DNA from: a virus | UHGV virus genome: UHGV-0284664 | Strand: one strand, 5' to 3' | Length of the DNA stretch: 28,290 bases | Shown: piece after piece, positions 6,001 to 9,000 of the stretch | How the letters are laid out: each line of letters starts with the position of its first letter | Position numbering within the stretch: the stretch's first letter is position 1 | Position numbers: made by a program

Positions 6001-9000
6001 CGTGGTGAACTGGAAAAGCTCCACCACCAGCTGGTGGATACGTATACCTCACTGAACCGGCAGTATGCGGAGCTGCTGAGTGAATATAAACATCTGCGGC
6101 GGTATTTTGGCGTGACGGTGCAGGTGCCGTATACCGATGTGTGGACGCATAAACCGGTGCAGTTCTATCCCGGGAAACATCCGTGCGAAAAACCGGCAGA
6201 AATGCTGCAGCAGATAATCAGCGCAAGTAGCCGTCCTGGTGATCTGGTTGCGGATTTTTTCATGGGGTCGGGTTCAACGGTAAAAGCGGCGATGGCACTG
6301 GGGCGTCGTGCGATTGGTGTTGAGCTGGAGACCGGACGTTTTGAGCAGACAGTCAGGGAAGTTCAGGATTTAATCGTTTGAAACGGATGAGATTGCAGAA
6401 TTAATTACGCACCATTATTATTCTGCTCCCGGCCCTTTAGCTCAGTGGTGAGAGCGAGCGACTCATAATCGCCAGGTCGCTGGTTCAAATCCAGCAAGGG
6501 CCACCATCACATACCGCCATTAGCTCATCAGGAAAGAGCGCCAGCCTTCGAAGCTGGTTGCGCGGAGTTCGGGTCCCCGAAGGCGGTCCATTATCTGTAT
6601 CCTGCGTTGTTAGCTCAGCCGGACAGAGCAATTGCCTTCTAAGCAATCGGTCACTGGTTCGAATCCAGTACAACGCGCCACACTTATTTTCCCTGGCTCG
6701 CTTTTGCGGGCTTTTTTTTAAATGTCTCACAATTCAGGCGGTTGACTGTTGTCTGGTTTGCGGGGAGTTTGTTAAAAGAAACTGGCATGGTGAATCCCCC
6801 TGTGCGGAGGGGCAATCAGCGAGTAGGTATATGGGATAATCGCGGATTCAGGTGCTGGTACTGAATTCACCGGGAGGCACCCGGCACCATGCAATGGCAC
6901 ATAGCGCCACTCTCCAGCCCCTCTCCGGAGGGGCTTTTCTGTGCCGGATACATCACAGTTTCTGGAACCTTAGGTACTACAGTATCAGTCAGGGTGCTAT
7001 ATTTTCAGATGTGATGAAAGCCTGTCAGCAGGCAGGGCGTATCGGAAATGACCCAGTAGAGAAAACGTTGACTCAGATACCGGTGCTGAGTTACCGGGAA
7101 ACCGGCATCACATGACCGCTATCCTTCCAGGCCCATCCGCTCCGGTGGGCCTTTTTACTGCAGAAAACAGGTTCCCCGTTAAATGCTATGTTGCTCACAA
7201 TTCAGTAAGTTGACAGTTGCCTGTCAGACTGGGCATTTGTTAAAAAAATTTCGCATGGTGAATCCCCCTGAGCGGAGGGGCGACTGGTGACGGTATAATC
7301 TCTGATTATCAAAACGAGAATGACGCGGGTTTAGTGGCACCGGGCTGAACTCACCGGGAGGCACCCGGCACCATGTGCATGATGATACAGATACGCGGCT
7401 TTAGCCCCTCTCCGGAGGGGTTTTCTTGTGGGCAAAAAAAGCCCGCGCTGGGAGACGCGGGCGGCAAGGAATAAACAATAAAACGTGAAGTAATATTTCA
7501 GCTGGCGAATAATATCCGACAGTAATCACTCTGCGCAATAGCGCGGCCTTTTTCGTATTGCGGGCTGTTGTCTCTCTTCTGCCATTGTCCTGTAACTTCC
7601 GGACTTCAGCCCGCTCCTCATTTTACTCACAATATTATCCCGGCCGGGAGGATTCATGGCATTTAAACACTATGATGTTGTCAGGGCGGCGTCGCCGTCA
7701 GATCTTGCGGAAAAGCTGACACATAAACTGAAAGAGGGCTGGCAGCCGTTTGGTAGTCCGGTGGCCATAACCCCTTATACCCTGATGCAGGCGATTGCAG
7801 CAGAAGGTGATGTGGTCGTCAGTGGTGCAACTGAGCCGGAGTGGTACTACGTCATCGTACTGGCCGGGCAGTCCAATGCCATGGCTTACGGTGAAGGGCT
7901 TCCGCTTCCGGATTCATACGATGCGCCCCATCCGCGCATTAAGCAACTGGCCCGTCGTAACACAGTGACTCCCGGTGGTGAAGTATGCGTATTTAACGAC
8001 ATCATTCCTGCTGACCATTGTCTGCATGATGTTCAGGATATGAGTACGATTAACCATCCCCGGGCTGACCTGAGCAAAGGGCAGTACGGCTGTGTCGGAC
8101 AGGGCTTACATATTGCCAAAAAACTGCTTCCGTATATCCCTAATAATGCGGGGATCCTGCTGGTACCATGCTGTCGTGGTGGTTCGGCATTCACCCAGGG
8201 CGCGGAGGGGACATTCAGTGCGGACACGGGGGCCAGCCAGGATTCGGCACGCTGGGGTGTGGGTAAACCATTATATCAGGATCTGCTTTTCCGCACGAAG
8301 GCAGCATTGCAGAAAAACCCGAAAAACGTTTTGCTGGCGATATGCTGGATGCAGGGGGAATTCGATATGACGAATGCCAGTTACGCCCAGCAGCCAGCAG
8401 CATTTCTTGCAATGGTACAGCAGTTCCGTGCTGACCTTGCCGGGCTGGCGGCGCAGTGCCATGGCGGCAGTGCTGCAGTTGTACCGTGGATTTGTGGCGA
8501 CACGACGTATTACTGGAAAAACACATACGGCACACAGTATGACTCCGTCTACGGCGCGTACAAAAACAGGGAGAGCGACAACGTTTTCTTTGTGCCGTTC
8601 ATGACCGACGGTAACGGCAACAACACGCCCACCAACTTACCGGCAGAAGACCCGGATATTGCTGATGCAGGTTATTACGGCGCGCAATCCCGTAGTAATG
8701 GTAATTGGGTATCGTCAAATCGTCCGACACATTTCAGTTCATGGGCGCGCAGGGGCATTATTTCGGATCGCCTGGCAACCGCTATTCTGAACGCAGTTGG
8801 TCGAACCAGCGCCTTCATCAGCGGTACCGCACCGGAGATTAAACCCTCGCCCGGCGGCGACACGCCATCGGGGCCGTCTGATGGTGACACATCCGTTCGT
8901 ACAGTCTCCCTGCTGCCGACAGCCGGAGAGGCTGCTGCGCAGGGCTGGACCATCACCGGCGGCAGTGTTGCGCTGGAAGATGGTGTGTTTAAGGTTACCA

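Follow-up and report, generated by a model that had tools for sequence, protein, structure and literature searches.

The tRNA genes ileZ, argN and argO form a cassette that was reportedly first annotated in phage 933W. In the record of this Stx2 phage (NC_000924), a feature named 'pT; putative tRNA promoter', three tRNA genes and a terminator after argO are annotated, with the remarks 'CGG?' for argN and 'AGG?' for argO. Two papers mention the trio in a descriptive way only, and a search of the literature for expression, charging or function of argN found nothing relevant.

The window analysed here, a stretch of 28,290 nucleotides of viral DNA (UHGV-0284664), carries three tRNA genes in a row. 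The initial annotation took them for ileZ-argN-argO and suspected that the middle one may be decaying. The identification is confirmed by 93-95% identity of the cassette to its counterparts in 289 phage records, most of them from Stx2 phages, where the genes are named ileZ/argN/argO, and by gene-for-gene alignment to 933W. Judged by its sequence, the trio is the already known rare-codon tRNA cassette of lambdoid (Stx-type) prophages. What our results add is modest: argN appears to be the one of the three genes that decays fast, and the allele present in the window, here called W, seems to stand part-way along.

Organization of the tRNA cassette

In the window, ARAGORN calls three tRNA genes and no more, and the Rfam family RF00005 (gathering score 29 bits) recovers the same three in identical register (Table 1). 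The first and third are clean cloverleaves with anticodons CAU and UCU, as initially described, and all three genes encode their CCA ends. Two mechanically derived ORFs lying over the tRNAs (6485-6730, minus strand; 6558-6839, plus strand) were dismissed as non-genes.

Table 1. Features of the tRNA cassette and its neighbourhood in the window
Feature	Position	Strand	Basis
Q antiterminator gene	3936..4757	+	Pfam PF03589, E = 9e-51; RefSeq 'antitermination protein' in UTI89
N6/N4 DNA methyltransferase gene	5332..6381	+	Pfam PF01555, E = 4e-43; RefSeq
Putative sigma-70 promoter, TTGCAG / 17-nt spacer / TATTAT	6393..6421	+	Sequence reading; aligned to 933W pT
ileZ, tRNA-Ile, anticodon CAU (lysidine-dependent AUA reader)	6431..6506	+	ARAGORN; Rfam 72.5 bits; RefSeq
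argN, tRNA-Arg(UCG), damaged allele W	6514..6590	+	ARAGORN; Rfam 43.4 bits
argO, tRNA-Arg(UCU), clean cloverleaf, AGA/AGG reader	6604..6680	+	ARAGORN; Rfam 70.1 bits
Intrinsic terminator, GGCTCGC-TTTT-GCGGGCT then T8	6695..6720	+	Terminator scan; kept in 933W after argO
DUF1737/SASA esterase gene	7656-9512		Pfam

The putative promoter ends 10 nt 5' of ileZ. It is assigned from the 933W annotation and from conservation; a consensus promoter scan makes no call at 6393-6421, where the -35 hexamer fits at only three of six positions. Because the promoter hexamers and the terminator align with those annotated in 933W, the cassette looks like an autonomous transcription unit with a putative promoter. 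Gene order, spacing, promoter hexamers, terminator and encoded CCA ends are the same in both cassettes.

The surroundings of the two cassettes are different. The trio lies downstream of Q, as the initial annotation had described for Stx-type phages, but a DNA methyltransferase gene, ending 49 nt upstream of ileZ, lies between them; in 933W, the cassette is located 3' of pR'/tR'. Unlike in 933W, the DNA downstream of the cassette contains two full matches to the STnc100 sRNA followed by the esterase gene, and the interval between the tRNA genes and the esterase gene holds no stx gene. Since this interval lacks stx and has the STnc100 copies in that slot, the window represents a lambdoid prophage of the non-Stx kind rather than an Stx phage.

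Positions 6380-6720 are 100% identical to prophage DNA of strains UTI89, S88, APEC O1, IHE3034, 042 and ATCC 11775, and many E. coli, extra-intestinal and other, carry such an identical segment. Some match to it is present in 3,061 of 5,426 complete genomes. In UTI89, the annotated order is DUF968, RusA, antitermination protein, DNA methyltransferase, tRNA-Ile, tRNA-Arg, tRNA-Arg, holin, lysozyme and terminase.

Structure of the middle gene

The argN gene of the window is scored by Rfam with E = 2.9e-06 against the whole window and lies 14 bits above the gathering score, rather than below it as the initial annotation had envisaged for a pseudogene. A canonical fold in another register, envisaged there as well, was looked for and rejected: a single register is returned by both ARAGORN and Infernal, and free folding offers a shifted T hairpin only.

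In the Rfam alignment, argN has the C1-G72 acceptor end and the perfect 5-bp anticodon stem that had been read initially, with the loop CUUCGAA and the anticodon UCG. The A-A mismatch reported in the acceptor stem is present, but its position is 6-67 rather than 7-66, since U7 pairs with A66; the reported T-stem mismatch is A52·C62. In total, 19 of 21 stem pairs are formed, and the gene falls short of a fully paired 7/4/5/5-bp cloverleaf. The T loop reads UUCGGGU, so that G58 replaces the near-universal A58, and the discriminator base is U73; both these features and the encoded CCA had been missed by the initial annotation. All the other conserved tertiary positions considered (U8, A14, G18, G19, A21, U33, G53, T54, U55, C56 and C61) are present, A58 alone being missing. 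Neither the D arm nor the anticodon arm is damaged, and A20, C35, G36 and the CCA end are likewise intact. Like a tRNA pseudogene, the gene has uncompensated structural defects compared with intact orthologues; it is neither below the tRNA-finder threshold nor flagged, and RefSeq labels it tRNA-Arg with no mark of a pseudogene, as is already the case for allele W in hundreds of RefSeq genomes.

The extent of damage becomes apparent from comparison with other alleles. Relative to 933W, ileZ shows no difference in 76 positions and argO one in 77, while argN shows seven in 77. Three of these seven (G52A, A58G and U67A) damage the fold and the remaining four are neutral or pair-preserving; in argN of 933W every stem pair is formed and A58 is kept. 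In other lambdoid prophages, intact argN alleles, whose T loops read UUCGAGU or UUCAAGU, resemble the window gene in the C1-G72/U73 end, D arm, anticodon arm and position in the cassette, but have 21 of 21 stem pairs and A58. Intact alleles score 58.4, 56.0 and 54.8 bits (the last being 933W), which leaves W, at 43.4 bits, 11-15 bits under them. A recurrent allele with G58 as the only defect still reaches 54.0 bits, and a further-mutated allele drops to 26.4 bits, under the threshold of 29. Since U67, G52 and A58 are kept both in intact alleles and in a sister family that shares the acceptor body, the states found in W are derived; A58 is kept also in tRNA-Arg(UCG) genes native to other phyla.

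Predicted folding energies point in the same direction, with moderate weight only, as they refer to unmodified RNA without base modifications or tertiary contacts. The cloverleaf of W is predicted at -20.0 kcal/mol (non-pairs removed) and those of intact argN alleles at -28.3 to -31.3 kcal/mol, a loss of 8-11 kcal/mol in predicted stability. It lies 7.0 kcal/mol above the minimum-energy fold of the same sequence, the largest gap among the six tRNAs tested. In this minimum-energy fold, the T arm is replaced by a UUCGG-GUCC-CCGAA hairpin, which is strengthened by each of G58, C63 and A67. The free fold as a whole is no better than that of shuffled sequence (z = -0.45).

Variation of argN among related prophages

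Contigs from IMG/VR were baited with the 3' end of ileZ only, so that the middle gene was left unselected, which yielded 119 cassette segments including the window. All three tRNAs are called by ARAGORN in 62 of them, and in 29 ileZ is followed straight by tRNA-Arg(UCU). The anticodon arm of argN is scrambled in 25 contigs, and three carry a fusion of the 5' part of argN to the 3' part of argO. Unlike the window gene, neither the scrambled allele nor the fusion, each scored in one contig, gives an Rfam hit at E <= 1. These dead derivatives in sister prophages sit where argN would, between ileZ and argO, and share their 5' and 3' ends with argN of the window, which would represent an earlier stage of the same process, if it is decaying at all.

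Milder damage is common too: one or more defects in stems or at tertiary positions were detected in 30 of 65 detectable argN copies, compared with 14 of 94 copies of argO. Nucleotide diversity among in-register trios amounts to 0.073 for argN, 0.017 for argO, 0.020 for that part of ileZ which did not serve as bait and 0.19 for the second spacer; argN is thus about four times as polymorphic as argO across the 119 phage contigs. The argO allele of the window is defect-free and the commonest one (36 of 94 related copies), and in the T stem of argO two changes compensate each other (CACUGG/CCAGU to CAGUGG/CCACU). No compensatory double change was found at the 21 stem pairs of 34 argN alleles, and their pairing equals that of shuffled controls; the alleles are too close to each other for this to speak for or against the cloverleaf. 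Within the clade of W, additional defects have appeared, namely G10U, G50A and a change of CCA to UCA. Taken as a comparison of sequences, this pattern supports the initial suspicion of decay: across E. coli prophages, argN behaves as a dispensable, fast-decaying member of the trio, of which ileZ and argO appear to be maintained.

The exact W allele is present in 246 complete E. coli genome records, a number that covers exact-allele matches only, as the 28-nt exact word of megablast misses some allele classes when queries are 77 nt long. The identical 77 nt occur in several IMG/VR contigs as well, and the gene was therefore rejected as an assembly or sequencing error; a chance match is likewise dismissed by its E-value. 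In O157:H7 and O111, close variants of W are preceded by unrelated upstream DNA. The number of records and the variety of contexts indicate that W is old and has not been erased.

Codon demand

To our knowledge, E. coli possesses no tRNA-Arg(UCG) of its own; CGA is decoded by an inosine-containing tRNA and CGG by a minor tRNA with the CCG anticodon. Because host tRNAs already decode both codons, argN would be helpful rather than essential, which fits its frequent loss.

Codon usage of the window's genes was compared with 34 core genes of UTI89 (13,083 codons). Odds ratios for early and late genes, respectively, are 8.3 and 3.4 for AGA, 8.8 and 6.0 for AGG, 3.5 and 3.8 for CGG, and 0.7 and 1.0 for CGA. 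For AUA they are 4.5 and 1.4 (p = 0.23 in late genes), so this codon is enriched in early genes only. The initial annotation expected a UCG anticodon to read the rare codon CGA. This is half of the story: relative to the UTI89 core sample, the window's genes show enrichment of the wobble partner CGG but not of CGA. For this reason, and in agreement with the remark 'CGG?' in the 933W record, an intact tRNA with the UCG anticodon would mainly serve CGG by wobble, rather than CGA.

Charging identity

In E. coli, arginyl-tRNA synthetase recognizes A20, C35, G or U at position 36 and a purine at position 73. The D loop of argN (AUCAGGAAA) provides A20 and the anticodon provides C35 and G36. The purine is absent: U73 occurs in the window gene as it does in all argN alleles examined, where it is fixed together with C1-G72, while argO has G73. 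Native tRNA-Arg(UCG) genes of Planctomycetota, Omnitrophota and Terriglobia share with argN an identical segment of 22 nt from the D stem and anticodon arm (GAGCGCCAGCCUUCGAAGCUGG) and the same type of D loop with A20. They differ from the phage family in the acceptor end, which is G1-C72 with purine 73 in native genes and C1-G72 with U73 in argN.

Interpretation

What the gene is, which defects it has, how it compares with its relatives and how codon usage is biased are matters of observation; from them we infer that the function of argN is reduced and that selection on it is relaxed. We consider it probable that argN of the window encodes a tRNA-Arg(UCG) that is weakened, decaying or no longer functional, and that it drifts under relaxed selection between two tRNA genes that are maintained. 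The cassette as a whole would supply tRNAs for codons over-used by the prophage and poorly read by E. coli: ileZ for AUA, argO for AGA/AGG and argN for CGG/CGA. Selection on argN may have been relaxed by the ability of host tRNA-Arg(ICG) and tRNA-Arg(CCG) to decode CGA and CGG. Of the three damaging substitutions, G52A breaks a pair of the T stem, U67A breaks a pair of the acceptor stem, and A58G replaces the conserved A58 of the T loop. Together, these substitutions are predicted to favour the competing hairpin UUCGG-GUCC-CCGAA. The gene may persist because it is located between two maintained tRNAs.

Several observations run counter to decay. The Rfam score is well over the threshold, ARAGORN calls the gene and RefSeq labels it tRNA-Arg. 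Diversity of argN is lower than that of the adjacent spacer (0.073 against 0.19), pointing to some residual constraint on the family, and enrichment of CGG represents a plausible continuing demand. A mismatch of the A·C type is close to isosteric with G·U, and working tRNAs are found with single mismatches in the acceptor stem.

The importance of these results for discovery is little and their value is practical. A call by a tRNA finder on the middle gene of this cassette is not by itself a ground to assume function, which has a bearing on claims that prophage tRNAs boost translation of virulence genes.

The same observations could be taken to mean that W is a fully working tRNA-Arg(UCG), serving the abundant CGG (and CGA) codons of the prophage, with the three odd positions being tolerated polymorphisms. 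A gene that passes both tRNA finders, retains its D arm, anticodon arm, A20, C35, G36 and CCA end, and sits in a prophage with 3.5-3.8-fold enrichment of CGG would agree with this, as would the presence of the exact allele in so many genome records over different prophage contexts and the recurrence of the G58-only allele with its score of 54 bits. Yet the three changes specific to W all fall on positions that matter for structure, with no compensation for any of them, the loss relative to intact alleles amounts to 11-15 bits and 8-11 kcal/mol, and the clade of W goes on accumulating defects. Moreover, in dozens of otherwise intact cassettes the argN slot is scrambled, fused or undetectable, which marks it as dispensable. 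For these reasons, we regard full function of W as unlikely, though not remote.

Considerably less probable, to the point of being a long shot, is that argN has been re-purposed for a non-decoding role or for shifted charging and that the changes in W were selected for the UUCGG/CCGAA hairpin. The gene could, for instance, act as a spacer or processing element of the ileZ-argO transcript, as a decoy or resistant substitute against arginine-tRNA nucleases such as colicin D, or as a tRNA with altered charging. For the last option it may be relevant that U73, C2-G71, G3-C70 and C35 are common to argN and the determinants of E. coli tRNA-Gly; more generally, the atypical C1-G72/U73 end of the family is absent from native bacterial tRNA-Arg(UCG) genes. 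A literature search found no direct evidence for any of these roles, and the scrambled and fused alleles show that the slot does not depend on any particular sequence. As for the hairpin, G58, C63 and A67 all add pairs to a single alternative stem of 5 bp, and when the sequences are read side by side the change from A58-U63 to G58-C63 looks compensatory for it; C63, however, also improves the normal pair between G51 and position 63. The class of alleles with AAG breaks the hairpin by A57·C64 and A58·C63, and yet it is common and its cloverleaf is free of defects.

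Variant forms of the argN gene

Allelic forms of the middle gene of the ileZ-argN-argO cassette are diverse among related cassettes in IMG/VR contigs. The most frequent single class is a scrambled argN (loci L101, L114, L079 and 22 more), in which the 5' and 3' ends of the gene are kept and AGACGACACGATAACAGGGTTGTTGGT stands in place of the anticodon arm; members of this class are not detectable as tRNA. Three contigs (L020, L047 and L093) carry a chimeric gene composed of the 5' half of argN and the 3' half of argO, with the junction at GCCUUC, the anticodon-loop sequence common to both genes. 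Acceptor and anticodon stems of the chimera cannot form, and it has no match in Rfam. The chimera is evidence that argN and argO have recombined with each other, with the loss of one unit. In contig L029, a single base changes the argN anticodon from UCG to UCU, the rest of the argN body being intact; the cassette thus possesses two Arg(UCU) genes.

A sister cassette (L108, L060, L067 and related loci) begins with the same ileZ. Its second gene combines the argN-type C1-G72/U73 acceptor body with a different anticodon arm, whose loop, CCUUUAA, has C at position 33. This gene is called Lys UUU by ARAGORN, scores 44 bits, and is followed by tRNA-Thr(UGU) and then tRNA-Gly(UCC).

The argO gene varies at position 37, which is G in the Stx2 phage 933W and in three IMG/VR copies, whereas the window and most alleles have A.

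Genes downstream of the tRNA cassette

The slot occupied by stx in 933W contains copies of the STnc100 small RNA in the window (matches within 6727-7470). A repeated motif, CTCACAATTCAG..TTGAC, lies ahead of both full copies, each of which is closed by the terminator AGCCCCTCTCCGGAGGGG. The PasD sRNA family has been linked to STnc100 in a 2026 preprint. In 933W and other loci, anti-sRNAs AsxR or AgvB are encoded on the minus strand adjoining STnc100. The minus strand of the corresponding slot in the window (7434-7500) gives no match to either family at E <= 1 and includes a strong terminator; the slot may hold an uncatalogued variant or an sRNA of PasA/PasC type.

Further downstream, the window encodes an intact esterase, of which only a truncated pseudogene is present 3' of the otherwise identical cassette in E. 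coli UTI89; UTI89 itself is therefore not the origin of the window.

Features of the window and of the 933W argO gene
Feature	Position	Remarks
STnc100 sRNA, full copy	6756-6946	Rfam, 136 bits
STnc100 sRNA, weak third match	6985-7158	Rfam, 30 bits
STnc100 sRNA, full copy	7224-7433	Rfam, 161 bits
Strong terminator	7462-7441	minus strand
DUF1737/SASA/DUF6645 esterase gene, NanS-p type	7656-9512	618 aa
argO of 933W	L122 1796-1872	G37, loop CUUCUGA

Codon usage of prophage genes

Early (183-6381) and late (7656-28091) genes of the window were compared with a host core-gene sample. CGG is strongly enriched in both sets, with 13-14 per 1000 codons versus 3.7 in the host sample. Enrichment of AUA is confined to the early/regulatory genes.
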